DNA of 46,767 bases. Origin: Treponema sp. GTDB taxonomy: Bacteria > Spirochaetota > Spirochaetia > Treponematales > Breznakiellaceae. The first letter of the stretch is position 1. Every line of letters begins with the position of its first letter. The stretch covers positions 1 through 46,767 of the forward strand of contig JAISYA010000055.1 of the NCBI GenBank assembly GCA_031270205.1. Reading direction: 5' to 3'. Below, piece by piece: positions 6,269 to 42,844 of the stretch. A model generated the notes under the pieces. The model saw nothing but the letters and a program-made list of their open reading frames with translations. It was not told the origin of the DNA and made no database searches. The position numbers were made by a program, and so were the translations under genes.

Positions 6269-6302
6269 TATATATGGCGCGCGGACGCGAGGCGCTTTAG
6301 TG
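6269..6302 (-). promoter_or_regulatory. Conserved bipartite box upstream of comM (candidate competence promoter)
   Basis: CACTAAAGCGCC-N9-CGCGCCATATATA on the minus strand; both blocks identical to 42811-42844. Confidence 0.7.
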
Positions 6303-6327
6303 TTTTGGGGAATTTGGGATTAAATTT

Positions 6328-6363
6328 GAAGCCCTTCCAAAACTTCAAATTTGGAACAGCCTC
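6328..6363. repeat. About 36-bp dispersed palindrome
   Basis: GAAGCCCTTCCAAAACTTCAAATTTGGAACAGCCTC. Confidence 0.75.
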
Positions 6364-6389
6364 ATTTAGTATAAAAATAAAACGGGCCC

Positions 6390-6450
6390 TTGACAAAAAT
6401 GAATTTAATTCATAAAATTAATAAGCATCGATATTATGAATATCACTCAG
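6390..6450 (+). promoter_or_regulatory. Sigma70 promoter of the tetR operon with overlapping palindromic operator
   Basis: TTGACA(6390)-N17-TAAAAT(6413); palindrome ATGAATTTAATTCAT at 6399-6413 and imperfect copy ATGAATATCACTCAG at 6436-6450. Confidence 0.7.
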
Positions 6451-6466
6451 TGTTTAAGAAGGATAT

Positions 6467-7186
6467 ATGGGAATACAGGAGCGGAAGGAACGGGAACGGG
6501 AGGCGCGGAAGGCCCTGATTTTGTGCGGCGCTGAAGAACTCATCCTGGAAAGGGGCGTGGACGTGGTCAATATGGAGGATATCGCGCAAAAGGTGGAGCT
6601 GAGCGTGGCGACCCTCTATCTGTATTTTTCAGGCAAAAACGCCCTGTTTAAGGAGCTGTGTGACAGCAATACCGAGCGATTTATCAGTATCGTACAGGCC
6701 CAATCACGGCCGGGACTATCCGCTCTGGAGCATATCCGCCTGTTCTGGCTGAGTTATCTTTCCTTCCATGAAACGTCGGATGAAAACATGCTCATAATGC
6801 TCAATATGCGGCAGTATATCGCCGAAGCCTTCCGGTATACCTCTCCCCCGGAAGAATCGCCGGAACAGAATTCTTCAACTTCCGCGTTCCTGTACGGCAT
6901 GATCAAGGGTATGATTACCCAGGGGATTAACGAAGGAATCTTTGATTCCGCCACGGACCCGGATATAAGCACCCGGACCCTCCTTTCGCTGTTTCTGTAT
7001 ATTATGGAATGTACCGCCGCGCTGCCCAAGGCCGAGCGGAAAACGCTCCAGAGTATTGCCGAAATGAAAAAGGTTTTTGAGATTATTTTGCGGGGCATCG
7101 CCGCGGAAGGGGTTGACCGTTCCCTGCTGGCACTGCCGGAACTGGAACAGCACAGGTATGAAGAAGAGCAGCATGAAAATATTTAA
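6467..7186 (+). CDS. TetR/AcrR family transcriptional regulator
   Basis: N-term HTH: MEDIAQKVELSVATLYLYFSGKNALF. Confidence 0.92.
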   Translation: MGIQERKEREREARKALILCGAEELILERGVDVVNMEDIAQKVELSVATLYLYFSGKNALFKELCDSNTERFISIVQAQSRPGLSALEHIRLFWLSYLSFHETSDENMLIMLNMRQYIAEAFRYTSPPEESPEQNSSTSAFLYGMIKGMITQGINEGIFDSATDPDISTRTLLSLFLYIMECTAALPKAERKTLQSIAEMKKVFEIILRGIAAEGVDRSLLALPELEQHRYEEEQHENI

Positions 7187-9842
7187 ATACCCCTGGCTCA
7201 TTGTAGCGGTGACCGCCTGTATAACGATCTTTTTCGCGTTCCAGCTTCCCCGCGCGGAGCTGGACAACAACAACCGGCGTTTTATCCCTAAAGATGATTC
7301 GGCCAGACTAATAACAAATTACATCGACGAGACTTTCGGCAGTACGCACTTTATCCTCGTGGGGCTTGAACGTGAATACGGAACGGTGTTTGACCGGGAA
7401 TTCCTTTTCCGCCTGCGGGACTATGTGGAACGGATCGAAAAAATAGCAATTGTCGGCGAGGTGAATTCCCTCATGACCGCGGATTATATTACCGGAAACG
7501 AGGACGCGATCCTCGTGGAACCTCTGGTGGCCGATGACTTTTCGGGCGGATCGGGGGAAATTGCCGCCTTAAAACAACGGCTCCTCTCCTGGGACATGTA
7601 CCGGCGCTCGTTGATCTCCGACGATTTTACCGCGACACAGATTCTGATCCCGCTGGATCTTGATCCGGAAGAATCGGGCAACCCTGAGGTGGACGCGGCT
7701 TTCGTGCAAATTCGCGGCCTGGCCCGCGAAATGTTCGACGGCCTTGCAAAAGTGTATGTCGCGGGGATGCCCGCGGTGAGCGCCAGTGTCAACGAATCGG
7801 TCAAGGCCGATCTCCTGCTGCTGATTCCGCTCGTTATTATAGTAACTTTGGTGGTTGTCTATTTACCGCTGCGGAATATCACCATGGTTGCGTTATCGAT
7901 TCTCGGGGTTATTCTGGCGGTGATCTGGTCCGTTGGGGCTATGCCCCTTCTGGGGATAAAACTGTCGATTATTTCCACGGTTCTGCCGGTGATCCTTATC
8001 GCGGTGGGCAATTCCTATGGGCTGCACGTGATCATCCATTATGTTGAGGATGCGGACGCGGATTTAAGCGCTATGACCTGGGAAGCGCACCGGGAGATGA
8101 TTTTTACCCTGGTGCGGACCATCCGCAGGCCCGTGGCGCTGGCGGCCCTTACCACTATGGTGAGTTTCTTTTCCTTTAGCCTTACCCAGGTACCTCCCAT
8201 ACGGGAATTCGGATATTTCGCCGGTTTCGGGGTTTGTTCGGCCTTTTTCATTAACCTCATCCTGATCCCCGCGCTGCTTATCATCATGGGGCCGCAGCTT
8301 CTGAAGAAGATCAAACGGCGTTCCGCTAAAGAGGACCGGGTCAGCCGCTATCTCTCGCGTTTTTTTTCGTCGCTTGTCAAACGGAGATATTTGATTATAG
8401 GAACGGCGGCGGCGCTGTTCCTCGTTTCCCTGTACGGCGCGTCCCGCCTTGTCATCGACAATGTGATGCTGGAGTATTTCAGGCCGGCTACGGACATCAG
8501 AATGTCGGATGTTTTTATGCAGGAAAAGTTCGGCGGTTCAAAGGTGATAGACCTGACGGTGCAGGCGGATTCCCCTGAAATATTGCTGCACCCCGCGGTT
8601 TTGGGGGCTGTTGACGATCTGGGCGTCTACCTGTCGGCCAAAATAAGCGAAACCGGCAAGGTCATGGGCTTTACGGACATGGTCAAACGGATCAACCAGG
8701 TGTTTAACGCAGGAGAATCCCCCGAAGGCCTGGCGGTAAGGGACGTTCCCGCGGATTCGGGGGAATGGGCTTCAGGTTTCGGGTTCGGCGCGGATGATCC
8801 GGCGGACAGCGGGTTCGGCTTTGGGGCCTTTGTCGGTACACCGGATTCTGACGGACCTGAGCCAGGCGCTCCGCTGCGTGAAGCGCCGGGCGTTCCCGCT
8901 CCCGCCGAAGACGGGGCGTTCACCTCCCTGGAATTGGCCGGCCTGCTGGACAGGGCGCTGGGCGCGGGGGACGGCCTGGCTATGGACGTTTCCGCCCTTG
9001 CCTGGGAACTGAAAAAGCTCGCCAACTATGACGGGGCGGCCTATTATGAAATCCCCCGCGACCCGCAACGCTACGGCAAAACCCGCCCCGGGGAACTCCA
9101 GCAGCTGGTTTCCAATTACCTGGTTTTGCTTGCGGGGGACATTGACTCGTATTCCAACGATCCCCTGGAACCCACGGCGATCAGAACCACAGTGCAGCTG
9201 CGCACTACCGGGCAGATCGACACGGGCAGGGTCCTTGACGCGATTAACGGTTTTGTGCAGGCCAATTTTCCCGATACGGTGCGGGTGAAGATAGGGGGTA
9301 TCACTTTGGAGGAAGCCTCCCTCAACAGGCTGGTAGTCCAATCCCTGTGGAGTTCCATCATCATCGCCCTGATTTCCCTCTTTGTGATTATGTCCCTGGT
9401 GAACCGCTCGGCAATGGCGGGCCTGCTCAGCGTGGCGCCTTTGGGCCTTTTGATGACTACGAACTTCGCGATCATGGGCTTTGCGGGGATCAAGCTCAAT
9501 ATTGGAACCGCGATGATTTCCAGTTTATCAATGGGAATCGGGATCGATTACACCGTGCATTTTCTGGAGGCCTACAAGCGTTCCTACCGGGCTTCAGGCG
9601 GGCGCGGGGATTTTTTGCAAAGCGCCTACCGCACCTGTGGACAGGCGATTCTGGCGGACGCGGCGGCGACGGGCCTGGGCTTTGCCGTCCTGCTGTTCTC
9701 CCGGTTCAACATGCTTGCCGAGCTGGGTCTGCTGATCGCCCTGGCTATGGGCCTGAGCGCGCTCGTGGGGCTTATCCTCGTGCCGGCCCTGCTGGGCTGG
9801 ATCAAGCCCCGCTTTGTCCGGGGTGATTCGGATCCTGCGTAG
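7173..9842 (+). CDS. MMPL/RND-superfamily transporter
   Basis: Two repeats of TM + periplasmic domain + 5 TM; GIGIDYTVHF motif; start moved to MKIFKY, overlapping the tetR end. Confidence 0.9.
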   Translation: MKIFKYPWLIVAVTACITIFFAFQLPRAELDNNNRRFIPKDDSARLITNYIDETFGSTHFILVGLEREYGTVFDREFLFRLRDYVERIEKIAIVGEVNSLMTADYITGNEDAILVEPLVADDFSGGSGEIAALKQRLLSWDMYRRSLISDDFTATQILIPLDLDPEESGNPEVDAAFVQIRGLAREMFDGLAKVYVAGMPAVSASVNESVKADLLLLIPLVIIVTLVVVYLPLRNITMVALSILGVILAVIWSVGAMPLLGIKLSIISTVLPVILIAVGNSYGLHVIIHYVEDADADLSAMTWEAHREMIFTLVRTIRRPVALAALTTMVSFFSFSLTQVPPIREFGYFAGFGVCSAFFINLILIPALLIIMGPQLLKKIKRRSAKEDRVSRYLSRFFSSLVKRRYLIIGTAAALFLVSLYGASRLVIDNVMLEYFRPATDIRMSDVFMQEKFGGSKVIDLTVQADSPEILLHPAVLGAVDDLGVYLSAKISETGKVMGFTDMVKRINQVFNAGESPEGLAVRDVPADSGEWASGFGFGADDPADSGFGFGAFVGTPDSDGPEPGAPLREAPGVPAPAEDGAFTSLELAGLLDRALGAGDGLAMDVSALAWELKKLANYDGAAYYEIPRDPQRYGKTRPGELQQLVSNYLVLLAGDIDSYSNDPLEPTAIRTTVQLRTTGQIDTGRVLDAINGFVQANFPDTVRVKIGGITLEEASLNRLVVQSLWSSIIIALISLFVIMSLVNRSAMAGLLSVAPLGLLMTTNFAIMGFAGIKLNIGTAMISSLSMGIGIDYTVHFLEAYKRSYRASGGRGDFLQSAYRTCGQAILADAAATGLGFAVLLFSRFNMLAELGLLIALAMGLSALVGLILVPALLGWIKPRFVRGDSDPA

Positions 9843-9980
9843 ATCGGGAGGCCGATCCTGATTGGATCGGGACACCGATCCTGCCTGGATCGGGACACCG
9901 ATCCTGATTGGATCGGGACACCGATCCTGCTTAGATCGGGAGGCCGATCCTGGTTAGATCGGGAGGCCGATTCGCGGTTA
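9831..9980. repeat. 23-bp tandem palindromic array, about 6 units, GATC-rich
   Basis: GATCGG-GACA/GAGG-CCGATC-CTGNYTR repeated; overlaps the MMPL stop codon. Confidence 0.92.
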
Positions 9981-10057
9981 ATGGGGAATTGCTGTGGATT
10001 AAGACGAGGCTTGCTGCGCCGGGGTGTGCGCACAAGGCCGTTATTGAGGAGGTTAGG

Positions 10058-10843
10058 ATGCAGATGTACAGAATGAAACGGGCGCTTTTTATGCTGGGCG
10101 TGATGGTAATTTCGGCGCGGCCGCTGAGCGCCCAGGACGCTGCGGCGCTGATACGGGAGTCCCGCGACCGCATCACGGCGGACACGGTTTCCAGCCGCTC
10201 GCGGATGACGCTTACCGCCAAAAACGGTTCCACTACCGAGCGCCGGCTGGATCAGTATTCCAAGGACGGCCCCAGGGGGAGCCGGACCATTGTCGCGTTC
10301 CAAAGCCCCGCGGCGGTGGCGGGCACGCGCTTTCTCACCATGGAAAACTCCGGCGGGGCGGACGACCGCTGGATTTTCCTCCCCTCGCTGGGGAAGGTTC
10401 GCCGGATTGCCGCCTCCGAAGGCTCCGGCAGCTTTGTGGGCACGGATCTGTCCTACGACGACATTTCCGCCGCGGACCGGGACGCGGATTTAGACACCCA
10501 CCGGCTCCTGCGCGAAGAATCCCTCAACGGCGCGCCCTGTTACGTGATTGAATCGGTTCCCAGGGACACGTCCTACCAGTATTCCAAAATGGTGCAGTGG
10601 ATTGACAAGGCCACCAGGGTAAACCACCGGGTTGAACTCTACGACCGGCGGGGAACGTTGGTGAAGCTCCTTGAAACGCTTGAACTCAGGGATGTGCAGG
10701 GGCGGCTTAGTCCCACGCTGACCAAAATGAGCACCCTTGCCGCGGGGACATCCACGACCATTACCGTGGAGATTCTCAAATACGACGATCCCATCCCCGA
10801 AAGCGTCTTTACCACGAGATTCCTCGAAACCGGAAGACCCTAG
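10058..10843 (+). CDS. Outer-membrane lipoprotein-sorting (LolA-like) protein
   Basis: Signal peptide; F.SPA.VAGTRFL, DDRWIFLPSLGKVRRIA, SFVGTDLSYDD motifs; GAGGAGG SD. Confidence 0.88.
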   Translation: MQMYRMKRALFMLGVMVISARPLSAQDAAALIRESRDRITADTVSSRSRMTLTAKNGSTTERRLDQYSKDGPRGSRTIVAFQSPAAVAGTRFLTMENSGGADDRWIFLPSLGKVRRIAASEGSGSFVGTDLSYDDISAADRDADLDTHRLLREESLNGAPCYVIESVPRDTSYQYSKMVQWIDKATRVNHRVELYDRRGTLVKLLETLELRDVQGRLSPTLTKMSTLAAGTSTTITVEILKYDDPIPESVFTTRFLETGRP

Positions 10844-10992
10844 CAGCCCGTTGCACTTGTGGATTTTTTTGCAATCTTTCAGGAAAAACGCAAAAAAATC
10901 CCCGATTTATGGGGCTGCCTGCAGTTTGCAGGGTAAAAAATCGCCTGAAGGCGATTTTTGGAGATTATAATGCGCGAAGCGCGACAAACTGT
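10843..10992 (+). repeat. Composite MITE/REP-like element, modules A+B
   Basis: A: GCAGCCC...GGGCTGC (10843-10918) with the long hairpin; B: GCAGTTTG...CAAACTGT (10921-10992) with hairpin AAAAATCGCC-TGAA-GGCGATTTTT. Confidence 0.8.
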
Positions 10993-11005
10993 TAATCAAA
11001 GGTGA

Positions 11006-12466
11006 ATGGCGATGAACCGGCGGCACTATCTGTGGGCGGCGGCGGGCCTGCTGCTCTCCCTGTGGCCCGCGGCGGGACAGGATGAGGGCGATTTCGGCTT
11101 CGGCTTTGGGGACGAAGCCGCCGAGGCCGCCGCGCAGCCGGGAGTGAAACTTTCCGGCGATGTCTCGACGAAGATTCTGGGCTACGGGAGTGATTTTAGA
11201 TCGGCGGAAGCCTTCAAAGACGCCCGCCTGGGGGATATTTTCGCGGGGAAACTCAAGTTCGCAGCATCGGCTTTTAACACCGAGATGGCAATCAACCTGA
11301 AACTTGCCCCGGTATTCGACGACTTTTCCTCCGCGCTGGGCCTTGACGAAGCGTATCTCCGCGTTTACCTGGGGAATTTCGACCTGGAAGGGGGGCTGCG
11401 CAAGCTCACCTGGGGCAAGGCCGACAGCTTCGGCCCCCTGGACACCATCAACCCCCTGGACTACCGGGACTTCACCGCGATGACGGACCTCATGGGCCGC
11501 AAAATCGCCCGGCCCATGATCCACGCATCTTACCGCCTCGGCGCCTTCTCCACCATAGAAGGGGTCTTTGTTCCCACATTCGAGGGCCACCGCTTTGCCG
11601 GAAACGGCCGCTGGACGCCCTCCCAGGTTCGGGAGCTGCCGGCCTCTATAAGCCGGGGGCTTGTCCGCCTGGCCCCCGCCGCCTTCCGCCAGGCCGTACA
11701 GACGGAGATCGCCTCAGGGCTTAACTCGTCGGTCATAAACGACGCGTACCCTTCACAGAATGATCTTGCCTCCCTGCAATACGCCCAGGCGGGGGCGCGT
11801 TTTACCACCACCGTCCGCTCGTCTGATTTTGGCCTGCAGTATTACTTCGGACGCCTGGGCCGTCCCTCGGTCACTGTGGAAGGCGCATCGGCCCTGCGGG
11901 GCCTTACTCCCCAAAACGCTTCCCGTGTACTGCAATCCCTGAAACCTCGCATCATCTACAACCCCTATCACCAGTTCGGCGCGGATTACGCGCGGGTTAT
12001 CGCAGGTTTTAACCTCCGCGCCGAGTTTGCCGCGCATATCACCGGCGATCGTTCCGGCAAAGACGGCTCGGTGTACAACCCCTTCCTCGCCTGGTCCCTG
12101 GGCTTTGACCGCGACCTCTTTGGGGGCGTCAACCTCAACCTGCAAGCCACGGAAACCATCCGCCTTATGAACAGCGGCGTCAGGGACAACCCCGCCCTTG
12201 ACACTGAGGCGGGCACGGACATGACCTCGACCCGCGTTACCATGGTCCTCTCAAAAAAACTGCTGCGGGACGAACTGGAACTCAAAACCACGGGGATATG
12301 GGGCATTGAGGACAGGGATTTTCTCATCATCCCCGCCATTGTATGGACCAAGTGGGATATGACCGCGGAACTTTCCGGCGGCATCTTCGGCGGGGACGAA
12401 CAGGGAGAGCTGGGGCAGTACCGCAACAACAATTTTTTCAAGACCATGCTGACGTATTCGTTCTAA
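11006..12466 (+). CDS. Putative outer-membrane beta-barrel protein (DUF1302-like) of the MMPL/LolA-like operon
   Basis: Signal peptide; LDEAYL...G..KLTWGKAD..P.D.INP motif; amphipathic strands; C-terminal YSF. Confidence 0.7.
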   Translation: MAMNRRHYLWAAAGLLLSLWPAAGQDEGDFGFGFGDEAAEAAAQPGVKLSGDVSTKILGYGSDFRSAEAFKDARLGDIFAGKLKFAASAFNTEMAINLKLAPVFDDFSSALGLDEAYLRVYLGNFDLEGGLRKLTWGKADSFGPLDTINPLDYRDFTAMTDLMGRKIARPMIHASYRLGAFSTIEGVFVPTFEGHRFAGNGRWTPSQVRELPASISRGLVRLAPAAFRQAVQTEIASGLNSSVINDAYPSQNDLASLQYAQAGARFTTTVRSSDFGLQYYFGRLGRPSVTVEGASALRGLTPQNASRVLQSLKPRIIYNPYHQFGADYARVIAGFNLRAEFAAHITGDRSGKDGSVYNPFLAWSLGFDRDLFGGVNLNLQATETIRLMNSGVRDNPALDTEAGTDMTSTRVTMVLSKKLLRDELELKTTGIWGIEDRDFLIIPAIVWTKWDMTAELSGGIFGGDEQGELGQYRNNNFFKTMLTYSF

Positions 12467-12655
12467 ATGGCATGATTCCGGGCGGCCTTTATGGGAGACA
12501 GAGGGATAAAGACTTCCCTCATAATAGGCTTTAACGGCTGTCATACAGATTCCGGTATAGGCTATATCGATCCGCCGGTATAAGCTGCCCGTAGTTATAT
12601 TCGTAAGCACGGTAGTTCAAAGATTGCAAATAACCGCCGATTTTCTTGCGTTACC

Positions 12656-12684
12656 TTGACAAAAAACCATATCCGTCTTATAGT
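12656..12684 (+). promoter_or_regulatory. Sigma70 promoter upstream of the lipoprotein gene
   Basis: TTGACA-N17-TATAGT. Confidence 0.6.
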
Positions 12685-12910
12685 TATTCATGTGAATATG
12701 CCAGCGTTGCTAAATGAAATCGTCTGTTGCCCCGTTACACTCCCGCTTAGCGGTCACCTGGTAACGGTCAAGTTCCCTGTGTATAGCGTAGTTTTAGCGT
12801 TTTTTACCTCTTTTTCCACACCATATATAGCGTACTCCGCAATAGAAGAATGAAAAGGGAAGAATGACATGGCACACAACGCAACTGGTTACTGAGAAGG
12901 AGAATATAAC

Positions 12911-14068
12911 ATGAACAAAGCGCTTATCCGTTACCTGATCCCTGGTATCTGTTTTCTGGTACTGGCCTTCGCCGCCTGCAAAAACCCCATTATAGCGGAG
13001 TGGTACCGGGACGATGACGACCAGAGCCAGAGCGCCGGAGCCACGCTCCAGACGTCCCAGAGCGCCGCGCTGCAGACGGTCAACGACCTGGCCCTGACCT
13101 ATAACGTGCCCGCGCCCTACGGGAGCGAGACGCCGGTGCGGTCCTTCGCCGGCCCCCAGTATGAGGGGAGGGTGGACTGGTCCGTCTCCAGCGGGGAGGC
13201 GCACAACGGTCCCTTTGTGACCGGCACGGCGTACACGGCGGTGGTGACCCTGGCCGCCGCGACGGGCTGGACCTTTAGCGGCGTGCCGGAGAACTCCTTT
13301 GCCCACCTGGGTGCGCCGGGGGCGGTCGTAACCAACACGGCGGGTACGGATTCGGGGATGGTGGTAACCATCGTCTTCGGGACGGCGACCGACGTGCAGG
13401 CGGTAGACGACCTGAACCTGGCCGGTTATGTTCCCGCGCCGGTAACGGGCGGGATTCCGGCGCTTTCCCTGGCCGGGCCGCAGTATACCGGGGCCGTGAG
13501 TTGGTCCGTGGGAGGAAGCCCGCACAGCGGCGTCTTCCGGCCCGGCACAGTGTACAGGGCGACGGTAACGATGCAGCCGGCCAGCGGCCGGACCTTTACC
13601 GGCGTGGGGACCTTTATCTACGGGGGGGCAAGCGTCACTCACGCTGCGAACTCTAACGTGGTATACATCACCTTTCCGCCGACCGGGCCCGACGAGCCGG
13701 TAAGCTCCCCCATCGACCTGAGCGCGTATATCCGCAAGCCGGTGATAGGGGGCGAGCCGATAGTCAATTTCTATACCGGGACCTGCTACGGGACCGTGGA
13801 ATGGAAGGTTGGTGGAACGGCGATGACGACCGGGTTTTTCCTGAGGGACACGGTGTATACGGCGGAGGTAACGCTTACCCCCGTGCTGGGCTATGTCTTC
13901 CCCGGCGGGCTTACGGTTATCCATAGCAATGCGGCCGGGGCGCCAACGGTGATCTCTAATCCCGTCCCGGCCAAGGTTTTTTCCATCACCTTCCCCAATA
14001 CCGGGAATATACTGCCCCTGGTTTCCGGTTCCGGGGCGGTAACGTCCGGCGCGGGAACCCCTGGGTAA
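12911..14068 (+). CDS. Surface lipoprotein with three internal about 90-aa beta-rich repeats
   Basis: Lipobox LAFAA-C; repeats DL..Y.PAP..G..P......Y.G.V.W.V.G....G.F....Y.A.VT.....G..F; AAGGAG SD. Confidence 0.8.
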   Translation: MNKALIRYLIPGICFLVLAFAACKNPIIAEWYRDDDDQSQSAGATLQTSQSAALQTVNDLALTYNVPAPYGSETPVRSFAGPQYEGRVDWSVSSGEAHNGPFVTGTAYTAVVTLAAATGWTFSGVPENSFAHLGAPGAVVTNTAGTDSGMVVTIVFGTATDVQAVDDLNLAGYVPAPVTGGIPALSLAGPQYTGAVSWSVGGSPHSGVFRPGTVYRATVTMQPASGRTFTGVGTFIYGGASVTHAANSNVVYITFPPTGPDEPVSSPIDLSAYIRKPVIGGEPIVNFYTGTCYGTVEWKVGGTAMTTGFFLRDTVYTAEVTLTPVLGYVFPGGLTVIHSNAAGAPTVISNPVPAKVFSITFPNTGNILPLVSGSGAVTSGAGTPG

Positions 14069-14363
14069 CGTCCGGCGGGGCTGCGTGGGTTACAGCCGTG
14101 ACCGGCGTCAACGAATTTTTGCGTGGCGGCCGCGGCGCTTCAAGTTCTCCAGCGGCCGCGGTGAACTGTGGCGACGGGGGGCCGGGGACTACTGGTTAAA
14201 TCGGCAGGCAAGGCGGGCTACAGCGGCCTTATCATCCGCTTCCTCCATTCGGGGAACGCCGCGTGAAGGAACAGGTAATAGAGAGCAAGGAATTAAGCGC
14301 GCGGTGTTCAACACACGGCGTCTGTCCGCTCCGCTAATTTTTGGACAGGCCCGATTAAGAAAG

Positions 14364-33459: not shown

Positions 33460-34977
33460 ATGGCGGAAGATTTAATGGACAGGGTATTTTCCTTTTTCTC
33501 CGGGGACGGCGATGAGGCCGACGACATGAAAATATTCCTTAAACAGACCCTTAAAGAGCTGGGGCAGAACAGGCACGCGAAGTTTTTCAGGGCGAAAACC
33601 GGCGAGGCCGATCCTCTGATGGCCGCCTTCTTTTACAAGGTATTCAGGATACTGTTCGCGTTCAGGACCTTCAGCCGCGAAGAGGAAAAAATGACCCGGC
33701 TGAGACAGATGATCCTGACCGCCTCCATGGATAAATTGATTCTTGATACGGCCGGGCGGCTCAGCCCCGAGTCCATTGAGGAGCGGTCCCAAACGACCGC
33801 CCCGGCGGAGCTGACCGCCCAAATAGAGGCTGATATTGGCCGGCTGCGCGCCGCCTTTGACGAGCGCCGGATAAGCGCGGTAAACCGCTGTTACAACCTC
33901 GCCGCGGCGCTCTCCGGACTGGCCAACTTTAATTTTCCCGGCTTTCTGAAAAAATTCGACCCGAACTTTACCGGGGGCAATTTTACCGCTGAACCGAATT
34001 TCTCAGCCGTAAGCGCGGGCATTATCATCAAGGACCTGGGCGAATTTCTCGCGGTTTCCCATTCTTTGCCTCCCGAAGGGGACTGGAAATCCCTGCTTGA
34101 CCTGCTGAAAATCTGCGCCGGAGCGGAGATAGTAAAGCCGGTCCATTTCGCCGCAATGCTCGTAAACCTGCAGGAACTGCACCAGTCGAAGATACTCGAA
34201 CTTATCGTCCGCTATGTCGGCAAAAACCCGGTGTGGGAGTGGAAGCCGCAAACCCCCGACGAGCATATCGGGGAGGCCTGGCTTGAGGCGCGTGAGGAAG
34301 AGGCGCGGGAAAACATCGGGAAAATCAAGTTTGTCCAGAAGCACAGTCAGATCGATACCCTGACCAAACGTGTCTTTGACAACGCCGGGCTGGTCCGGCT
34401 TGAAAATTACAATACCGCGAAGGGGGAAGTGCTGCGCAAGCGCGACCTTGAAGACTTTGTCTACGCCGAAGGCCTGAACTATCTGAGCGCTTTTCTTGAA
34501 GATTACCTTGAAAAAGAAATCCGGGAACTCTGCGACATTCTGTTGATCCGCGGCCAGTGGACGAATAACGGCATATCCAGGGAAATGTCCGAGGCCCTGT
34601 ACCAGCTGCTGGATGCCTCCGCCCCCATAAAAGCGCTGGACGAACGGCTCGCCGAAGACGGTGACGACGGCGCCCGCCTGAAGGCGGCGGTCATGCGGGT
34701 GGACCGGGACAAAACCCAGGCCCGCTATATCAACAGTATCGTCGGCAACAACAACGAGCAGGCCCTGGAAATGATCAACACCGCCGCCCAGAGGTTCATC
34801 GTCATCGGCAAGTACCTGAAAGTGCTGATAGAAGACGGACAGAAAAGCCGCCCGGAGCTGCTTCACAACTGGCGTGAGCTCAATTCGGTTTCCAAATCGC
34901 CCCTTATCCAGCGGATGACCGACGATTACCGGAAAATCAACTATTTTATCCAGCTTATGCGGCTGTGTACGCGGTAG
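33460..34977 (+). CDS. Conserved spirochetal all-helical protein (DUF5312-like)
   Basis: About 505 aa; FLKKFDP, LLIRGQW, LHNWREL motifs; GAGG SD; upstream TTGAAA-N17-TACAGT. Confidence 0.7.
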   Translation: MAEDLMDRVFSFFSGDGDEADDMKIFLKQTLKELGQNRHAKFFRAKTGEADPLMAAFFYKVFRILFAFRTFSREEEKMTRLRQMILTASMDKLILDTAGRLSPESIEERSQTTAPAELTAQIEADIGRLRAAFDERRISAVNRCYNLAAALSGLANFNFPGFLKKFDPNFTGGNFTAEPNFSAVSAGIIIKDLGEFLAVSHSLPPEGDWKSLLDLLKICAGAEIVKPVHFAAMLVNLQELHQSKILELIVRYVGKNPVWEWKPQTPDEHIGEAWLEAREEEARENIGKIKFVQKHSQIDTLTKRVFDNAGLVRLENYNTAKGEVLRKRDLEDFVYAEGLNYLSAFLEDYLEKEIRELCDILLIRGQWTNNGISREMSEALYQLLDASAPIKALDERLAEDGDDGARLKAAVMRVDRDKTQARYINSIVGNNNEQALEMINTAAQRFIVIGKYLKVLIEDGQKSRPELLHNWRELNSVSKSPLIQRMTDDYRKINYFIQLMRLCTR

Positions 34978-34980
34978 CCT

Positions 34981-36279
34981 ATGTATTTGACTAAATCAAG
35001 CCCCATACACCGTATCGGTTTTGTCTCGACCCGCTTCAAGGGAAACGACGGCGTCTCTCTTGAAACGATCAAGTGGCGGCAGGTGCTGGAACGCATCGGC
35101 TATGAGTGCTTCTTTTTTTCCGGCCTTTCCGACTGGGACGCGGACAGGTCCATGGTGGTGGAAGAGGCTTTTTTCGCGCATCCGGCAATTCAGGCGATTC
35201 AGGACCGCTGCTTCGGCATCACCGTGCGGGATGAGGATCTTTCCGGCAAAATACAGGCTGTGCGTTTCAAGCTGAAGACGGCGCTTTACGATTTTGTGGG
35301 GCAGTTCAGGATTGACCTGCTCATTACCGAAAACGCCCTGACTATCCCGATGAACATTCCCCTGGGCCTGGCCCTGACGGAGTTTATCGCGGAAAAGGGA
35401 ATCCCCGTCATCGCCCACCACCACGACTTTGCCTGGGAACGGCAGCGCTTCTCGGTAAACTGCGTGGCGGATTATCTTTCCATGTCCTTTCCCCCGCGCC
35501 TGCACAGCATCAACCATGTGGTCATCAACTCCGAGGCCCGCCAGCAGCTTTCTTTCCGCTGCGGCCTTTCCTCGATTATCATCCCCAATGTGTACGACTT
35601 TGACGCCGCGCCGCCCCAAATGGACGACTACGCCCGCGGCATGCGCAAAGACCTGGGCGTCGGTGAAGGCGAGGCCCTGTTGCTGCAGCCCACCCGTATA
35701 GTCGCCCGCAAGGGGATTGAACACGCCATAGAACTCGTGAGCCGCTTACAGGACGCCACAGGCAATTTGCCGCCAAAGCCGGCAAAGCTGCTCATCAGCC
35801 ACCAGGAGCGGGATGAGGGATCGGACTACTACCAGCGGACGATGGATTACGCCGCGCTCATGGGCGTGGAGGTGATCATCAGGCCGGACATTATCGGCGC
35901 GGAGCGGGGCCTGACCGAAACAGGGCGGAAAAAGTACAGCCTGAACGACTGTTACCTGAACGCGGATTTTGTCACCTATCCTTCAAGCTACGAAGGTTTC
36001 GGCAACGCCTTCCTTGAGGCGCTCTGGTTCAAGAAGCCGATACTGGTCAACCGTTACTCGATTTTCCAGCAGGACATTGAGCCGCTGGATTTCGACGTGG
36101 TGATAATGGAAAACTACGTTACGAACGATACGGTGGACACGATCCGCTCCCTGCTTGAGTCTCCCGAAACGGCGCAGATCCTGGCGGAGCGCAACTTTGA
36201 GCTGGCCCGCAGGTTTTTCTCGTTCAACCTGCTCGAACAGCGCCTGCGCCAGGTACTGATGAATTTCGGGCAGTTATAG
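34981..36279 (+). CDS. GT4 glycosyltransferase (mannosylglucosylglycerate synthase-like)
   Basis: DGVSLET.KW, HHHDF.WER, LQPTRIVARKGIE, YPS.YEGFGNAFLEA. Confidence 0.85.
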   Translation: MYLTKSSPIHRIGFVSTRFKGNDGVSLETIKWRQVLERIGYECFFFSGLSDWDADRSMVVEEAFFAHPAIQAIQDRCFGITVRDEDLSGKIQAVRFKLKTALYDFVGQFRIDLLITENALTIPMNIPLGLALTEFIAEKGIPVIAHHHDFAWERQRFSVNCVADYLSMSFPPRLHSINHVVINSEARQQLSFRCGLSSIIIPNVYDFDAAPPQMDDYARGMRKDLGVGEGEALLLQPTRIVARKGIEHAIELVSRLQDATGNLPPKPAKLLISHQERDEGSDYYQRTMDYAALMGVEVIIRPDIIGAERGLTETGRKKYSLNDCYLNADFVTYPSSYEGFGNAFLEALWFKKPILVNRYSIFQQDIEPLDFDVVIMENYVTNDTVDTIRSLLESPETAQILAERNFELARRFFSFNLLEQRLRQVLMNFGQL

Positions 36280-36303
36280 CCCGCTTACGGAAAGCCCGCC
36301 TTG

Positions 36304-36756
36304 TCATGCGCCGGCGATTCGGCCGCCGAGGAGACCCTGCTTCTTGAGGTTGAGAATATATTGGGCGTACTTTTTGTCCTGCACGGCGATGTGGGTGAGT
36401 ACCCAGTCTTTGAGAAAGCGGACGAACACATTGGGCACGAATTTCTTGCCGTTCTGGAATGTCTCAACATCCTCCAGTATCTTTTTTACAAAACCTTCGT
36501 GTTCCCGCTTGTGTTCCGCGAATTCGGGGTACTTAATGTTTCCCAGCAGCTTTTCTTCCGCCGAAAAATGGTATTTTACATAGTCCACCGTTTCGCGGAT
36601 TGTTTCCATAAAGTAGGAACGGGCCGCTTCGTCCCCCTCAAGGCAGCCCTTATACAGCGTATTGGTCATCTCAATGAGCTTTTTGTGCTGCTCGTCTATC
36701 AACTGAATGCCTACCGAATACCGGTTATCCCACTCAACAAGTATACCGTCTTCCAT
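36304..36756 (-). CDS. Bacteriohemerythrin
   Basis: W...YSVG...IDEQHKKL, HFSAEE, HKREH, WVLTHIAVQD. Confidence 0.93.
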   Translation of the reverse strand: MEDGILVEWDNRYSVGIQLIDEQHKKLIEMTNTLYKGCLEGDEAARSYFMETIRETVDYVKYHFSAEEKLLGNIKYPEFAEHKREHEGFVKKILEDVETFQNGKKFVPNVFVRFLKDWVLTHIAVQDKKYAQYILNLKKQGLLGGRIAGA

Positions 36757-36850
36757 AAAATTTGCCCTTTACCGGTTTAGTATACCCCGAACGGCTGTTT
36801 TAATAAAGGGGAAAAGGCGGGCGCAGGGCATCGGCGGAGCGTTTGCCGGA

Positions 36851-37810
36851 TTATAACGGCAGCTTTTCTATCTCTTCCAGATTCGGCGGATCGGCGCCCC
36901 GGCGGGAACAGACAATGGAAGCGGCCTTGTTGGCAAAAAAGAGGGTCTCGCGAAGTTCCTCCGCGTCAAGGGCGGCGATTTTTTCCCCGGACATTTTATT
37001 CCGCGTTTCCAGGCGGGAAAGAAAGGCCCCGTGAAAAGTATCCCCCGCGCCGATAGTGTCCGCAACGGGCAGATTGACCACCGGCGCCCTCGCTTCAACA
37101 AGGCCGCCGTTGCCGGAACGAAGCAGGGCCATTGCGCCGCCTGCGCCCAGTGTGCTTATAACCAGACGGGGACCCAGGGCCAGCACTTTTTTCAGCGCCG
37201 TTTGCAAATCCATTCCGGGGCAGATAAATTCAAAATCCGCGGCGGAAATTTTTACGATGGTGGAAGCGGCAGCCCATTTTTCAAAACGTTTTATATACGC
37301 TTCCCGGTCATGGATCATAAAGGGCCTGATGTTGGGATCAAACGAAACAACGATGTTACCCGCTTCTTTGGCGCGCAGCGCCAGTGTTTCGATGGCGGTC
37401 GCTACCGGCTCCATGGTCATTGCGATGGAACCGAAAACCAGGCAGCGGGAGCCGGCCGGAAACGACGCGGGAATATCCTGTATGGAAAACGAGCGATCCG
37501 CGGCGCCCTCGGTATAAAAAAGATACTCAGGCTCCCTGTCTTTTCCCAGTTTGACAAAGGCCAGGGCGCTGTGTTCATCGGCGCGGATAATCATATCCGT
37601 GCCGACACGATTGTCCCTGAGCCGCCGGATCAGGGCTTCGCCAAAAAAATCTTTCGAAAGCCTGCCGATGAACTGCACCCCGGCGCCCGCCCTGGCCGCG
37701 GCGATGGCGGTATTGTAGGGGCTTCCTCCGGGGACGGGACAGAACACCTCTGCGCCACCGGAATTTTGGGGAACCATGTCGATCAAGGCTTCGCCGCAGG
37801 CTATTATCAT
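36851..37810 (-). CDS. PfkB family carbohydrate kinase (fructokinase-like)
   Basis: GEALID, GGSPYNTA, FDPNIRP, DTIGAGDTF. Confidence 0.93.
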   Translation of the reverse strand: MIIACGEALIDMVPQNSGGAEVFCPVPGGSPYNTAIAAARAGAGVQFIGRLSKDFFGEALIRRLRDNRVGTDMIIRADEHSALAFVKLGKDREPEYLFYTEGAADRSFSIQDIPASFPAGSRCLVFGSIAMTMEPVATAIETLALRAKEAGNIVVSFDPNIRPFMIHDREAYIKRFEKWAAASTIVKISAADFEFICPGMDLQTALKKVLALGPRLVISTLGAGGAMALLRSGNGGLVEARAPVVNLPVADTIGAGDTFHGAFLSRLETRNKMSGEKIAALDAEELRETLFFANKAASIVCSRRGADPPNLEEIEKLPL

Positions 37811-37966
37811 CGTTGTCTCCTCCTGTGTTACCGCGATTGTACCCTGTTTATTCCTGTTTTGGAAGGCGTTCTATAACAGGGCATCGGCGTTTACTTGCAA
37901 TCCATGCACCACTACCATACCCAGAAATGTATCCGCGGACCGCTGATAGTTCCCCATTGATATAAG

Positions 37967-38541
37967 CTATATTGCGGGATCGACATAAGTTATGTTGTGG
38001 GGTCGACATAAGCTATGTTGTGGGGTCGACATAAGCTATGTTGTGGGATCGACATAAGCTATGTTGCGGGGTCGACATAAGCTATGTGGATGGATCGACA
38101 TAGCCTATGTTGCGGGATCGACATAAGCTATGTTGCGGGATCGACATAGGCTATGTTGCGGGATCGACATAGGCTATGTGGATGGATCGACATAGCCTAT
38201 GTTGCGGGGTCGACATAGGCTATGTGGATGGATCGACATAGCCTATGTTGTGGGGTCGACATAGGCTATATGGATGGATCGATATAGCCTATGTTGCGGG
38301 GTCGACATAGGCTATGTGGGTGGATCGATATAGCCTATGTTGTGGGATCGACATAGGCTATGTTGCGGGATCGACATAAGCTATGTGGATGGATCGATAT
38401 AAGCTATGTGGATGGATCGACATAGCCTATGTTGCGGGATCGACATAAGCTATGTTGCGGGATCGACATAGGCTATGTGGATGGATCGACATAGGCTATG
38501 TTGCGGGATCGACATAGGCTATGTTGCAGAATCGACATAGG
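37967..38541. repeat. 23-bp tandem palindromic array, 25 units, non-coding
   Basis: Units CTATGTTGYGGGRTCGACATARG and CTATGTGGATGGATCGACATAGC; exact 23-bp period with no indels. Confidence 0.97.
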
Positions 38542-38792
38542 CTGTATTGAAAGGGATTAATCGCCCTTGCGGCAAGGCGGAACAGGGCGGGATCAGCGCA
38601 GGGAAAGGGATACCGCGGATACCAGCGCCTGTGCGCGGCCTGTGGCGGGTGTTTCCCGCGCGGCCCGCGCTTATAGCGCCGCACCGTATGTGCCAATCAA
38701 AAAAGCAAACGCCGATGCCCCGCAGGGTAGCTGGAAAACGATGTCTTGAATATATCCGGTCACGCGCGTACATTGGTATTCGGGAGACACAC

Positions 38793-39935
38793 ATGAAAAT
38801 TATGGTGGCGCCGGATTCTTTTAAGGGAAATATGAGCGCGCCTGAGGTTTGCGCGCTTATTGAGGCGGGAATCTTGCGGGCCCGCAAGGACGCGGAGGTT
38901 TACAAAGTCCCCCTGGCGGACGGCGGGGAAGGGACGGCGCGGGCGGTAACGCAGGCCGCGGGCGGCCGCTTTGTAAATGCTTCGGTTACCGGCCCCCTGG
39001 GCGGCAGAATTGAAACCGAATTCGGCCTTATTGAGGGCGGCCGGGTCGCGGTTCTTGACATGGCCAGCGCGTCGGGCATAGAACTTGCCGGGCGGGACAA
39101 GCTCAACCCCATGAAGGCCACGAGCTATGGAACCGGCGAACTTATCGCGGCGGCCCTGGATACAGGCGCGGAGGAACTCATCATCGGGATAGGCGGAAGC
39201 GCCACCAATGACGGCGGCGTCGGCATGATCAGCGCCCTCGGCTTCAGGGTTTTGGATGACCAGGGACGGCCCGCAGGCCAGGGCGGTGAAGCGCTGGCGA
39301 AAATCGCCTCGGTGGACTGCGGGGGGGCCGACAAGCGGCTCAAAAACGTCTCGATAAAAGTGGCCTGCGACGTAACCAATCCCCTCCTGGGACCAACGGG
39401 CGCTTCGGCCGTATTCGGCCCGCAAAAGGGAGCGACGCCCGAGATGGTGAAAATCCTTGACGCGGGGCTTGCCCGGCTGGGCGAGGCGTGGATCAGGGCG
39501 GGCCTTGCTTCGGATCTGGAGCGGCCCGGAGACGGGGCGGCCGGCGGGGTCGGGGCGGCCCTGCGGATCTGCCTTGGCGCGGTTATGGAATCAGGGGCGA
39601 TGCTGGTGATGCAATACGCGGGCTTTTTCAGATGTCTTGAGGGAACCGGCTTAATCATAACCGGCGAGGGCATGACCGACGGCCAGACGAGCGGGGGCAA
39701 ACTCTGCTCGGTGGTTGCCCGCGAAGGCCGCAAGGCGGGGATTCCCGTCGCGCTGATCTCCGGCGCGCTGGGAGGCGATCCGGCGAATCTGCTTGCCGCC
39801 TTTGACTACGCGGTATCCATCTCCTGCGGCCAAAACGGCCTTGACGCCATGATACGGGACAGCAAGCGGGACCTCCGCTTCGCCGCGGAAAACCTCATGC
39901 GGGCCGTCGCTATCGGCGGAAAGGGCACAGCCTGA
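38793..39935 (+). CDS. glxK: Glycerate kinase (GlxK/GarK family)
   Basis: MKIMVAPDSFKG, PLADGGEGT, GIGGSATNDGG, ITGEG..DGQT..GK. Confidence 0.93.
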   Translation: MKIMVAPDSFKGNMSAPEVCALIEAGILRARKDAEVYKVPLADGGEGTARAVTQAAGGRFVNASVTGPLGGRIETEFGLIEGGRVAVLDMASASGIELAGRDKLNPMKATSYGTGELIAAALDTGAEELIIGIGGSATNDGGVGMISALGFRVLDDQGRPAGQGGEALAKIASVDCGGADKRLKNVSIKVACDVTNPLLGPTGASAVFGPQKGATPEMVKILDAGLARLGEAWIRAGLASDLERPGDGAAGGVGAALRICLGAVMESGAMLVMQYAGFFRCLEGTGLIITGEGMTDGQTSGGKLCSVVAREGRKAGIPVALISGALGGDPANLLAAFDYAVSISCGQNGLDAMIRDSKRDLRFAAENLMRAVAIGGKGTA

Positions 39936-39936
39936 T

Positions 39937-40440
39937 ATGGAAACACCCGGTATGGAACAGCCCGGCAGCGTGCGGAATCCCGCCGATTTAAGCGGAATGG
40001 CGGCGGCGGCCGCGAAAGAGTATATCCTCGGCTATGCCGCTGCCTTAAAACTGACCGAAAAACAGGCGCGGGATGTTGACGCGGAATTGGGCAAGTGGAA
40101 AAGCCGGGTGGAACTGGCCCGGCACAGAGACCTTGATCTCGCGGCGGCCGCGGAAAAAGAGCTTGCGCTTCTCAAAGACAAACAGGGGCGGTTAAGCATG
40201 GAGATTGGCGAGTTACGGTCCCAAATTGCGGAAATGCGCCGCCAGTTACCGCTGCTTGCCGCGCGGGAACGGAGCGTCGACCCTGATTTGCTTGAACAGG
40301 AACTTTTAATGGCAACGGGGCGTCTCGGCGGCGAGGAGGAAAAGGCCGCCAATGAGCGCCTGTTCAGCGGCCTGGAGCGAGAAGCCTCCGCCGAGGCGGC
40401 CCTTTCGCAGCTCAAGGCAAAAATGGCAGGAAACACTTGA
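39937..40440 (+). CDS. Short PspA/IM30-like coiled-coil protein
   Basis: W..RVELA....DLA..A segment and C-terminal AEAALSQLKAKM helix. Confidence 0.6.
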   Translation: METPGMEQPGSVRNPADLSGMAAAAAKEYILGYAAALKLTEKQARDVDAELGKWKSRVELARHRDLDLAAAAEKELALLKDKQGRLSMEIGELRSQIAEMRRQLPLLAARERSVDPDLLEQELLMATGRLGGEEEKAANERLFSGLEREASAEAALSQLKAKMAGNT

Positions 40441-42026
40441 GCGAGGATCATCAAGAAGCCGCTTCCGCCCGTTCCATGGTCCGTCACGGATCAACCCTGT
40501 CCCTCCTCACGTTGATTTCTCGCGTTCTCGGTCTGCTCCGCGAAATGGCAAAAGCAAGCCTTCTCGGTACGAGCGCCCTGTCGGACGCTTTTTCAGTGGC
40601 ATTCATGCTTCCCAACCTGTTCCGCCGCCTTTTTGCCGAAGGCTCCATTTCGGTGGCGTTCATTCCCACCTTCAAGGAATATCTCCTTAAAAACGATCTG
40701 AAAAAAAACCGGGAGTTCCTCTCCGCGGTTTTCACCCTCCTCACTTTTTTGGTGACCCTTGCCGTCATGGCGGGCATACTTGCCGCCCCGCTCGTCATCC
40801 CCCTGTTCGGCATGGAAGCGTTTGATGAAACCGTACTTCTCACGAGGATCATGTTCCCCTTCCTCGGGTTTATCTCCCTCGCCGCCCTGTTTCAGGGAAT
40901 TTTGAACAGCCTCCACATTTTTGCCCCTTCGGGCCTTGCCCCGATTGTGCTGAATATCGTTACCATCCTCTGCGCTTACGGCCTCAGTCCCTTTACCGAA
41001 AACCCCGCGCGGGCCATGGCCCTGGGTATCCTCATCGGGGGCTTCCTTGAGGCGGCGATTCAATTTCCCTTTGTGCTCAAACAGGGGCAGCGGTTCTTTT
41101 TTACCGGCATCAGGCGCGCCGTCACCAATCCCGGTACCCGCAAAGTACTCCGGCTCATCGGGCCGACGATTATCGGAATGGCCGCCTACCAGCTCAACGA
41201 TCTGGTCTCCACCGCGCTCGCGGGTAACGCCGGAGAAGGCGTTGTTTCAAGCCTCCAGTATTCCCTGCGGCTCCAGGAACTGATCCTCGGCGTATTCGCC
41301 GTCTCAATCGGAACCGTGCTGCTCCCCAACCTTGCCGAATACGCGAAAACATCCCGCTGGGATATTTACAACGAGCGCCTGATTGCGGCGATGGACATTA
41401 TCGCCCTTATTACGATCCCTATTACTTTTTTTTCCCTCGCCCAGGGGGAGCTTTTAATCCGCCTCCTTTTCCAGAACCGCAGCTTCGACGAAACTTCGGT
41501 GGCCCTGACGCTCTCGGCCTTTACATTCCACATGCCCGGCCTTTTTTTCATCGCCCTGAGCCGCATTCTCGCCCCCGCTTTCTACGCGCAAAGCGATTCC
41601 CGCTCTCCCACGCTTGCGGGCATCATTGCGTTCGCGGCGAATATGTGCCTGGCGCTCATATTGGTCCGCCCCCTCCGCGGCGCGGGCATCGCCCTGTCCC
41701 TGTCCCTTGCGAGCGTCATAAACACCGCGCTGCTGCTCGCCTTCCTCAAAAAGAATCCCAACATCGCCGTTGGCCGCGATCTCGGTTCCGCCCTGGTCTA
41801 CACTCTGAAACTTTCACTCCTCTCCGGCCTCGCCGTCATCCCCGTGCGCGTGCTCTCCCCGCGCCTGTTGGCCATTTTTGCCGGCAGGGGCCGCCTCATC
41901 TCTTACGGGATACCCCTTGCCGTCAACACCTTGATCTTCGCCGCGCTGGGAATAGCGCTGCTTTTTGCCACCCGTGACCGGAATCTGCGCGGATTACTGC
42001 GCGGCAATTCCCGTTTTAATTCGTAG
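40437..42026 (+). CDS. murJ: Lipid II flippase MurJ
   Basis: SRVLGLLRE, DAF.VAF.LPNLFRRLFAEG, AFIP; multi-TM. Confidence 0.95.
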   Translation: MSEDHQEAASARSMVRHGSTLSLLTLISRVLGLLREMAKASLLGTSALSDAFSVAFMLPNLFRRLFAEGSISVAFIPTFKEYLLKNDLKKNREFLSAVFTLLTFLVTLAVMAGILAAPLVIPLFGMEAFDETVLLTRIMFPFLGFISLAALFQGILNSLHIFAPSGLAPIVLNIVTILCAYGLSPFTENPARAMALGILIGGFLEAAIQFPFVLKQGQRFFFTGIRRAVTNPGTRKVLRLIGPTIIGMAAYQLNDLVSTALAGNAGEGVVSSLQYSLRLQELILGVFAVSIGTVLLPNLAEYAKTSRWDIYNERLIAAMDIIALITIPITFFSLAQGELLIRLLFQNRSFDETSVALTLSAFTFHMPGLFFIALSRILAPAFYAQSDSRSPTLAGIIAFAANMCLALILVRPLRGAGIALSLSLASVINTALLLAFLKKNPNIAVGRDLGSALVYTLKLSLLSGLAVIPVRVLSPRLLAIFAGRGRLISYGIPLAVNTLIFAALGIALLFATRDRNLRGLLRGNSRFNS

Positions 42027-42032
42027 CAATTC

Positions 42033-42806
42033 CTAGTCGTAAAACAGGCAAATTCCGTACACTTTTTTCGTGCCCCCTTTCTTCAAAACGGCGGCGCAGA
42101 CATCCAGGGTAGAACCGGTGGTCATCACATCGTCGATGAGGATCACTGTTTGGGGCGGCGCGCCTTTCAGGATGATGCGTCCCCGCAGGTTTGTTTTCCG
42201 CTCCGCGCGGTTAAGCGCTTTCTGGATTTTAGAGGGCAGCCGTTTGAGGCAGCGGGAAACTTTTATGCCGCCTTTTTCGAGCAGTGTTACCAGATACTCA
42301 ACCTGATCCCAGCCGGTTTTCCGTATTTTGCCCGGCCGGGGAGGAACCGGGACAATGACCGTCTCCGGGGAAACATACTCAAACGCTAAAGCGTTTGCCA
42401 GTGCGTCCTGAATCTTCTCCGCGAAAAAATTGCCCAGGGCGAGGTTTTTGCCGAATTTGTACGCGTTGAGGAGCCGGCGGTATTTGCCGGTGTAGGGGAA
42501 AAAAACCGCCGCCCGGTCAAAGGCGGGTTTTTCGGCATTTCGGCATGGAAGGCAGCGTTCACGCTCGGAAACAAGGGGCCGGCCGCAGAGATCGCAAAAG
42601 CTGTTTGCTGACAGGCGATCCTCCGCCCATTGATCCTCAATCGTATTCCGGCAGCTTTCACACAGGCCGTACCACGCTTCCTGTATGGTGATGAGTGCCG
42701 CGCCGCAAAGAGCGCAGTCCGCGGGGAAAAAATATTCCCGCAGAAAAAAGATCAGCCGCCTGGTTTTTTCACCTAACGCCAAAAGCCCGTTTCGCATAAT
42801 GCCCAT
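42033..42806 (-). CDS. comF: ComF family protein (double zinc ribbon + phosphoribosyltransferase domain)
   Basis: CALCG, CESC, CDLCG, CLPC, IVPVP, ILIDDVMTTGSTL. Confidence 0.92.
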   Translation of the reverse strand: MGIMRNGLLALGEKTRRLIFFLREYFFPADCALCGAALITIQEAWYGLCESCRNTIEDQWAEDRLSANSFCDLCGRPLVSERERCLPCRNAEKPAFDRAAVFFPYTGKYRRLLNAYKFGKNLALGNFFAEKIQDALANALAFEYVSPETVIVPVPPRPGKIRKTGWDQVEYLVTLLEKGGIKVSRCLKRLPSKIQKALNRAERKTNLRGRIILKGAPPQTVILIDDVMTTGSTLDVCAAVLKKGGTKKVYGICLFYD

Positions 42807-42810
42807 ACCA

Positions 42811-42844
42811 TATATATGGCGCGAAGCTGTGTGGCGCTTTAGTG
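42811..42844 (-). promoter_or_regulatory. Conserved bipartite box upstream of comF (candidate competence promoter)
   Basis: CACTAAAGCGCC-N9-CGCGCCATATATA; overlaps the dinB stop codon; identical blocks to 6269-6302. Confidence 0.7.

Follow-up and report, generated by a model that had tools for sequence, protein, structure and literature searches.

A bipartite DNA box precedes natural-transformation genes in a Treponema genome and in related spirochetes. Two copies, before comM and comF, lie in a 46,767-nucleotide (nt) contig of Treponema sp. (JAISYA010000055.1), which was analysed as a whole and is called the window; it is contig C124 of genome G000 (2.48 Mb, 78% complete). The box is almost certainly a genuine, conserved regulon motif. 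In the explanation we prefer, it would be the -35/-10 promoter of a natural-transformation regulon, and its reader would be a divergent sigma-70-type factor whose gene lies in the same genome (C247:3265-4146). Taken with all its parts, this explanation appears reasonably likely. The regulon and the claims of an earlier note on the window were read from sequence comparison, with start codons estimated. Below, "genus" means the genus of G000.

The two copies, CACTAAAGCGCC-N9-CGCGCCATATATA, are identical at all 25 block positions and have unlike 9-nt spacers, exactly as the earlier note had described (Table 1). It had also reported no other full copy in the window, and a scan allowing up to three mismatches returned exactly these two matches; none of 100 dinucleotide shuffles gave any. 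Outside the 34 nt the copies have no sequence in common, so they are not parts of a longer repeat. Copy 1 is separated by 20 nt from the ATG of a 588-residue open reading frame with the Pfam domains Mg_chelatase, ChlI and Mg_chelatase_C (ComM type). Only 4 nt lie between copy 2 and the ATG of a 257-residue frame with DZR_2 and PRTase domains (ComF type), and the left block of this copy holds the TAA stop codon of dinB (IMS domain). Reading frames and Pfam domains agree with the earlier note on these distances and on the overlap with dinB. In the 400 nt upstream of dinB itself no site scores above 1.2 bits, and we count this unboxed gene as a neighbour outside the regulon. With a motif trained without G000, the box before comF ranks first in the whole genome and the box before comM second.

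A first matrix for G000, built from nine near-exact copies, was partly circular: it gave 16 sites of at least 16 bits, and shuffled sequence reached 17.3 bits. An independent matrix was learned de novo, with no training sequences other than the regions upstream of comM in 14 genus-mates. It found 11 sites of at least 23 bits in G000 and none in the reversed genome; below about 20 bits its matches are noise (46 at 15 bits or more, against 51 in the reversed genome). Expectation maximization forces one site on every training sequence, and for this reason the training rows, here and in the comM plus recA matrix described below, were not counted as evidence. The strong sites precede comF, comM, recA, radC, ssb, a RecQ-type helicase gene, a secreted EEP nuclease gene, the gene of a 341-residue lipoprotein, a gene running off its contig and two Rpn-type nuclease genes. 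The recA of G000 is a 28-residue remnant at a contig end, identified through its full orthologs. Weaker sites lie before a Big_5 lipoprotein gene and three DUF3782-like genes.

The exact pattern CTAAAGC-N14/15-YGCCATATA is present in 15 of the 36 genus-mates scanned; the 24 genomes scanned from other families have none, and the reversed control gave a single match across all 61 genomes. Its recurring targets, read from part of the exact matches, are recA, ssb, comM, comF, radC, RecQ, the EEP nuclease, the lipoprotein and an exported protein of about 520 residues; numerous Rpn and DUF3782-like genes are targets as well, as are three further lipoprotein families. Genus-mates lacking the exact pattern carry variants of the box before comM.

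The box drifts across the class. Before comM and recA of other families it reads (T/G)(G/C)AA(G/T)C(G/A)-N15/17-GCG(T/A), so that TAAAGC-N17-CATATA in this genus corresponds to (T/G)(G/C)AA(G/T)C-N17/18-CG(T/A) elsewhere, and G054 has an AT-rich variant. The earlier note had made its claim depend on comM orthologs carrying the box, and boxes do stand before comM orthologs in the genus and, in drifted form, in other families. A class matrix was trained on 29 comM and recA upstream regions of other families, and genes held out from the training were scored at p<0.05. Sense matches exceeded antisense matches for radC (9/14 against 1/14), for the lipoprotein (14/18 against 4/18), for comEC (6/15 against 0/15) and for dprA or TPR-dprA (10/18 against 1/18). 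Short radC matches (L290, L297, L307) and cut comEC loci (L445, L463) had been left out before counting, and G157 has no locus in the dprA test. Family f3 together with G056 stayed at background in the same four tests (2/8, 1/7, 0/6 and 0/5). For the 1.5-Mb genome G172, a pattern drawn from four sites gave 11 matches against 2 in the control, and the seven new ones include recQ and comEC.

The box is very probably a core promoter, to judge by its position and layout. Its fixed orientation and the start codons 5-6 nt downstream fit a -35/-10 promoter. Among 96 sites in the genus (kin and paralogs included), the ATG follows GCCATATA by 5-6 nt in 37 and by 14-18 nt in 35, and GGAG is mostly present in the latter class. 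Such peaks are expected of a promoter that gives leaderless and short-leader mRNAs. The ATG of comF comes 6 nt after the CATATA of its box, and a leaderless comF mRNA is therefore predicted. The box has no dyad symmetry, and at recA it often lies downstream of a separate sigma70-like -10 element. With the candidate factor bound, RNA polymerase would begin its transcripts 5-7 nt past the -10 element, and many of the mRNAs would be leaderless.

The putative reader is a single-copy protein of about 290 residues. The lead to it was a sub-threshold Pfam match in G007; G000 encodes seven Pfam-detectable sigma70 proteins besides. It is present in 45 of 49 genomes, with about 50% identity within the genus and about 25% between families, and its gene usually lies between a DHH phosphoesterase gene and rdgB. 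A phylum sample (n=121) gave 13 matches at E<1e-10, all in the class, and weaker ones outside it. Remote homologs in other classes of the phylum (L394-L397, in G103, G137, G080 and G124) have the same layout of sigma2, coiled coil and sigma4. The protein is annotated mostly as hypothetical (941 clusters at E<=1e-10).

Its kinship with sigma factors is distant. Pfam matches to sigma2 and sigma4 (E 7e-4 and 0.03) fall below the cut-off, as do the TIGR02937 matches of 20 of 25 members (best E 9e-11). HHalign with a diverse alignment assigned probability 97 to sigma4.2 of extracytoplasmic function (ECF) factors and 76 to sigma2. The AlphaFold model (pLDDT 87.7) has sigma2-like helices, a coiled-coil hairpin of about 75 residues and a terminal helix-turn-helix, and its best Foldseek rows are sigma factors, led by region 2 of E. 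coli sigmaE (probability 1.00, TM 0.65, E 0.3). A sequence search of the PDB gave no match, and a wide sequence search matched the coiled-coil hairpin only. Neither spore_sigH nor ComX is among the 25 listed of 38 NCBIfam families, and no anti-sigma gene adjoins the candidate at the loci inspected.

In every boxed genome of the alignment the candidate retains KG(T/S/A)VD, the recognition helix of its sigma4; this helix is replaced in G034, G152, G162 and G167 of family f3, which have no clear box. This helix may read AA(G/T)C, and the fast-changing sigma2 may read the lineage-specific -10 element. In most other families the candidate gene is preceded by TGGCAC-N5-TTGC, which we take to be a sigma54-type element; in G172 it is preceded by the box. 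The gene would thus be switched on by sigma54 from -24/-12 boxes in most families and by its own product in G172. In the genus of the window, the gene instead stands behind a conserved CCGATA(T/C)C, about 20-45 nt before the ATG (L258; L253-L273), which resembles a FliA -10 element and often has TTCTGCA about 16 nt before it.

The distribution of sigma factors also points to this protein, and it is probably the reader of the box. The boxed genome G172 (99% complete) encodes RpoD, a clade B factor, FliA, one ECF factor (ECF1) and the candidate only. G056 (96% complete) keeps RpoD, clades A, B and C, FliA and ECF factors, and has lost the candidate at the syntenic site, where the DHH gene is directly followed by argS. 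With the candidate, comEC, the lipoprotein and the box are gone from G056; recA, radC and dprA are retained. A comM loss is not claimed there, since absence calls at E<=1e-60 are unreliable (the comM of G026 was found in pieces). In G060 the candidate is absent, its locus is rearranged and the box is absent too.

Other sigma factors were considered and rejected as readers. Clade A, the nlpD-linked clade C and ECF2 are all absent from boxed G172. ECF1 has a promoter of its own, TGTAAC-N17-TGTT, and FliA uses another promoter at the flagellins. The two ECF factors of G000 have their own conserved upstream motifs, and the "eighth" ECF factors of some genus-mates are unrelated to one another. The clades come from a quick-version tree and serve for sorting only. 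The 1.2-Mb genome G157 has a single alternative sigma factor; it groups with clade A, which is therefore probably the Borrelia-type RpoS. G000 encodes three RpoS-like clades (L017 on C68, L018 on C38, L016 on C16); two stand behind sigma54 -24/-12 boxes, and the third stands behind nlpD with GCCGATAA upstream.

The genes comM, comF, comEC, dprA, ssb, recA and radC form a transformation set (PMC12378983, PMC3364868), and the box stands before them in the genus or in other families, as one would expect of a competence regulon under an alternative sigma factor. Excerpts, the form in which papers are cited here, name comEA, comEC and comM, along with radC and comF, as a competence set of Legionella (PMC12378983), place ComEC in Spirochaetes (PMC6299819) and describe T. 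pallidum as naturally competent (PMC12152143). The interpretation given in the earlier note, a promoter for an alternative sigma factor that defines a DNA-uptake regulon, is on the whole supported. That note expected the box before further DNA-uptake genes, and this largely came true: ssb, radC, recA and RecQ are boxed here, and dprA and comEC in other families; dprA, and comEC directly, are not boxed in the genus. ComEA (TIGR00426) exceeded the cut-off in 0 of 26 genomes, all matches being frames of about 800 residues or longer, and the E. coli pilus and secretin proteins HofQ, HofC, HofM and PpdD had no match in G000, at its 78% completeness. With neither ComEA nor a pilus or secretin found, uptake would need other parts. 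Such parts may be among the exported proteins behind the box, which are candidates for DNA uptake through their co-regulation. The boxed lipoprotein is present in 31 of 33 genomes, and its model (pLDDT 87.9) combines an Ig-like domain with a lamin-tail fold (lamin B1, Z 9.5, root-mean-square deviation 2.3, 105 residues aligned). The boxed protein of about 520 residues is a predicted outer-membrane beta-barrel (Atlas TM 0.56-0.68). Instead of ComEA and type IV pili, the barrel, the lipoprotein and the secreted nuclease would let DNA in; ComEC and ComF would then transport it, and SSB, DprA, RecA, ComM, RadC and RecQ would recombine it.

In the genus, comEC closes a PilZ-HEAT-comEC run. Five of eight genomes (G007, G014, G020, G045 and G046) have a sense box 2-5 kb upstream of comEC, across an antisense CAAX-protease gene. 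No long sense frame lies between box and comEC in G007 and G014, which makes a transcript reading through into comEC plausible in these two. The layout, seen at L062 (G007:C42) and L467 (G014:C49), resembles an excludon; some genomes have an inserted amylase-family gene behind the upstream box.

Several results weigh against the competence promoter and its proposed reader. In the genus, dprA is boxed within about 1.3 kb in none of seven genus-mates, and no box was found in the 9 kb upstream of the G000 gene; the strong sites of G000 all lie more than 300 nt from dprA, from comEC and from the candidate gene. No box directly precedes comEC in the genus, and three of the eight genomes (G013, G022, G048) lack the upstream sense box as well. 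Four of the seven new matches in G172 have no plausible target and another precedes galE, and a pattern for G135 and G088 returned its training genes and one match, no better than the control. The sigma2 homology drops to probability 0.6 with an alignment of close relatives, and the Foldseek E-values are weak (>0.1). The co-loss rests on one genome, G056, and kin genomes are not independent. Genomes of the G026 type keep comM, comEC, radC and a divergent candidate with YKGTID, and have no visible box. G060 has neither candidate nor box, though T. pallidum is reported to be naturally competent (PMC12152143).

The reader of the same regulon promoter might instead be the clade B factor (TP1012-like, sigma54-driven) or else RpoD helped by an activator, and the candidate would then be no more than co-distributed; we regard this as unlikely. 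Every boxed genome that was classified, G172 among them, has clade B and RpoD; in G054 the gene directly upstream of clade B is radC (L284, L192 on C117), and two CRP-like genes stand just past comM in the window. Exclusion of the two factors depends on G056 and G060 only, which keep both and have no box. In addition, region 4.2 of both is RpoD-like (RERIRQ/KERIRQ) and does not suggest AA(G/T)C, and it is the candidate, not clade B, whose gene has a box in G172 and was lost together with comEC. A regulon for DNA damage or recombinational repair, in which a sigma factor would replace SOS or drive an arm of it, is also unlikely, and competence rather than repair is the quite likely function. The boxed recA, ssb, radC, RecQ and nuclease genes fit repair too, as do the unboxed dprA of the genus and the lack of ComEA in 26 genomes. 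Borrelia is described as lacking LexA in an excerpt of PMC2780311; G000 encodes an intact one (L513, C43:4505-5074), and the repair function keeps some weight for that reason. Against it, lexA (6.5 bits) is unboxed like dinB, and no palindrome is shared upstream of lexA, recA and dinB (lexA and dinB from one genome only). Because the box is not palindromic and is absent before lexA and dinB, it does not behave as an SOS operator. The boxed comM, comF, comEC and dprA are transformation genes, four of the set (comEC, comM, radC, comF) recurring in the Legionella excerpt (PMC12378983), and G056 lost the candidate together with comEC, not with recA or radC.

That the box is an ordinary sigma28 (FliA) promoter variant is very improbable, in spite of a likeness within the genus. 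Flagellin promoters there read CTAAAG-N15-(G/A)CCGATA, and the earlier note's description of the box as partly sigma28-like is right for this genus, where the CTAAAG and the 15-nt spacing are common to both; class-wide, the AA(G/T)C...CG(T/A) form is not FliA-like. The -10 element of the flagellin promoters (GCCGATA or GCCGAAA) is CGCCATAT against GCCGATAT in the box, and neither the FliA -10 GCCGATAA nor the flagellin targets match the box. The targets differ: none of 13 flagellin-family loci is boxed, which answers the earlier note's concern that the motif might occur mainly at flagellar genes. Regions 2.4 and 4.2 of FliA hardly vary, whereas the -10 of the box changes between families, and G056 and G060 keep FliA without a box. 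Equally improbable is that the box marks a mobile cassette, or the end of a repeat, that travelled with Rpn and DUF3782-like genes and captured neighbours by chance. Many exact matches in the genus do precede multi-copy PD-(D/E)XK genes, yet the copies have unlike spacers and flanks, single-copy orthologs retain the drifting box across several families, and all targets in G172 are core genes. The scattered repeat that the earlier note had allowed for is thus not what was found.

The proposed competence promoter, read by the candidate, resembles systems known from other phyla. Streptococci with ComX/SigX (cin-box), and Staphylococcus aureus and Lactobacillus sakei with their SigH-driven com genes, have an alternative sigma factor devoted to a box that precedes genes of late competence and recombination (PMC3364868). 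The overlap in targets comprises comEC, comF, dprA, ssb, recA and radC. The spirochete system differs in phylum, in its bipartite box with a conserved -35 element, in the size of the candidate (about 290 residues) with its hairpin of about 75 residues before sigma4, and in that no ComEA or pilus genes were found. The cin-box is a -10-type box. ECF factors recognize AAC...CGT, which the class-wide AA(G/T)C-N17/18-CG(T) resembles; sigma2 and sigma4.2 of the candidate align to ECF profiles, both domains being detected weakly by Pfam, HHalign and Foldseek, and the boxed candidate gene of G172 suggests autoregulation of the ECF kind. The candidate has about 160 residues between sigma2 and sigma4, including the hairpin, whereas an excerpt of PMC7826278 gives ECF linkers of at most 50. 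It would therefore seem to work like ComX or SigH, yet with a linker too long for an ECF factor and apparently without ComEA and pili. The same kinds of genes are targets of CRP-S with Sxy in Pasteurellaceae and Vibrio, of ComK in Bacillus and of RocR/RocC in Legionella. Those are activator sites or RNA-level control, whereas the box, lacking dyad symmetry, sits where a core promoter would. In the full-text literature, which mostly does not cover subscription papers, no paper was found on the motif, on a competence regulon or uptake machine of spirochetes, or on this sigma family.

A wider picture is possible, and we offer it tentatively. Most of Spirochaetia may carry a cryptic competence programme under a new sigma family (sigma2, coiled-coil insert, sigma4), controlled by sigma54 or by itself, with DNA entry that dispenses with ComEA and type IV pili and goes by way of the boxed beta-barrel, the secreted nuclease and the Ig and lamin-tail lipoprotein; in treponemes of the termite-gut type, to which the genus of G000 presumably belongs, selfish PD-(D/E)XK genes may have captured the promoter so as to act during DNA uptake. 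The box yields a list of genes, and it names a candidate regulator overlooked by standard annotation. If the proposal is true, overproduction of the candidate would switch the regulon on and may make intractable gut and environmental spirochetes transformable, and the exported members would suggest that DNA is taken up by a route needing neither ComEA nor pili.

Multi-copy genes of several kinds are boxed in the genus, including Rpn (PDDEXK_2), DUF3782-like, IS200 and ORF6N genes (L003, L004, L007, L010, L011 and many others), and three of the five DUF3782-like copies of G000 with upstream sequence have a box. Capture of a competence promoter by selfish nucleases is possible, and the boxed PD-(D/E)XK genes (Rpn, DUF3782-like) would be expressed in the same state as the uptake genes.

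Table 1. Positions of the two boxes and the adjoining genes in the window
Feature	Position	Strand	Remarks
Box copy 1, before comM	6269..6302	-	predicted -35 TAAAGC 6299-6294, predicted -10 CATATA 6276-6271, 17 nt apart
Box copy 2, before comF	42811..42844	-	predicted -35 TAAAGC 42841-42836 (contains dinB stop), predicted -10 CATATA 42818-42813
comM (YifB/Mg-chelatase-like AAA+ helicase)	4482..6248	-	first gene after box 1
comF (double zinc ribbon and phosphoribosyltransferase fold)	42033..42806	-	first gene after box 2
dinB (Y-family polymerase)	42839..44038	-	stop codon overlaps box 2

Some further features were seen around these genes and elsewhere in G000. The lexA gene lies directly behind a sigma54-activator-like gene and has no evident palindrome upstream. 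The weakly boxed Big_5 lipoprotein gene (L014, C168:3226-11019) is followed by genes of two membrane proteins that look AcrB-like by sequence. In the window, the intergenic region between comM and a tetR-like gene has an imperfect inverted repeat (6325-6362) a short way upstream of box 1. Past comM on the same strand are the two CRP/cNMP-binding genes (1726-3449), one of them with TPR repeats, and a PHP-family gene on the opposite strand lies between them and comM; these families were judged from sequence.

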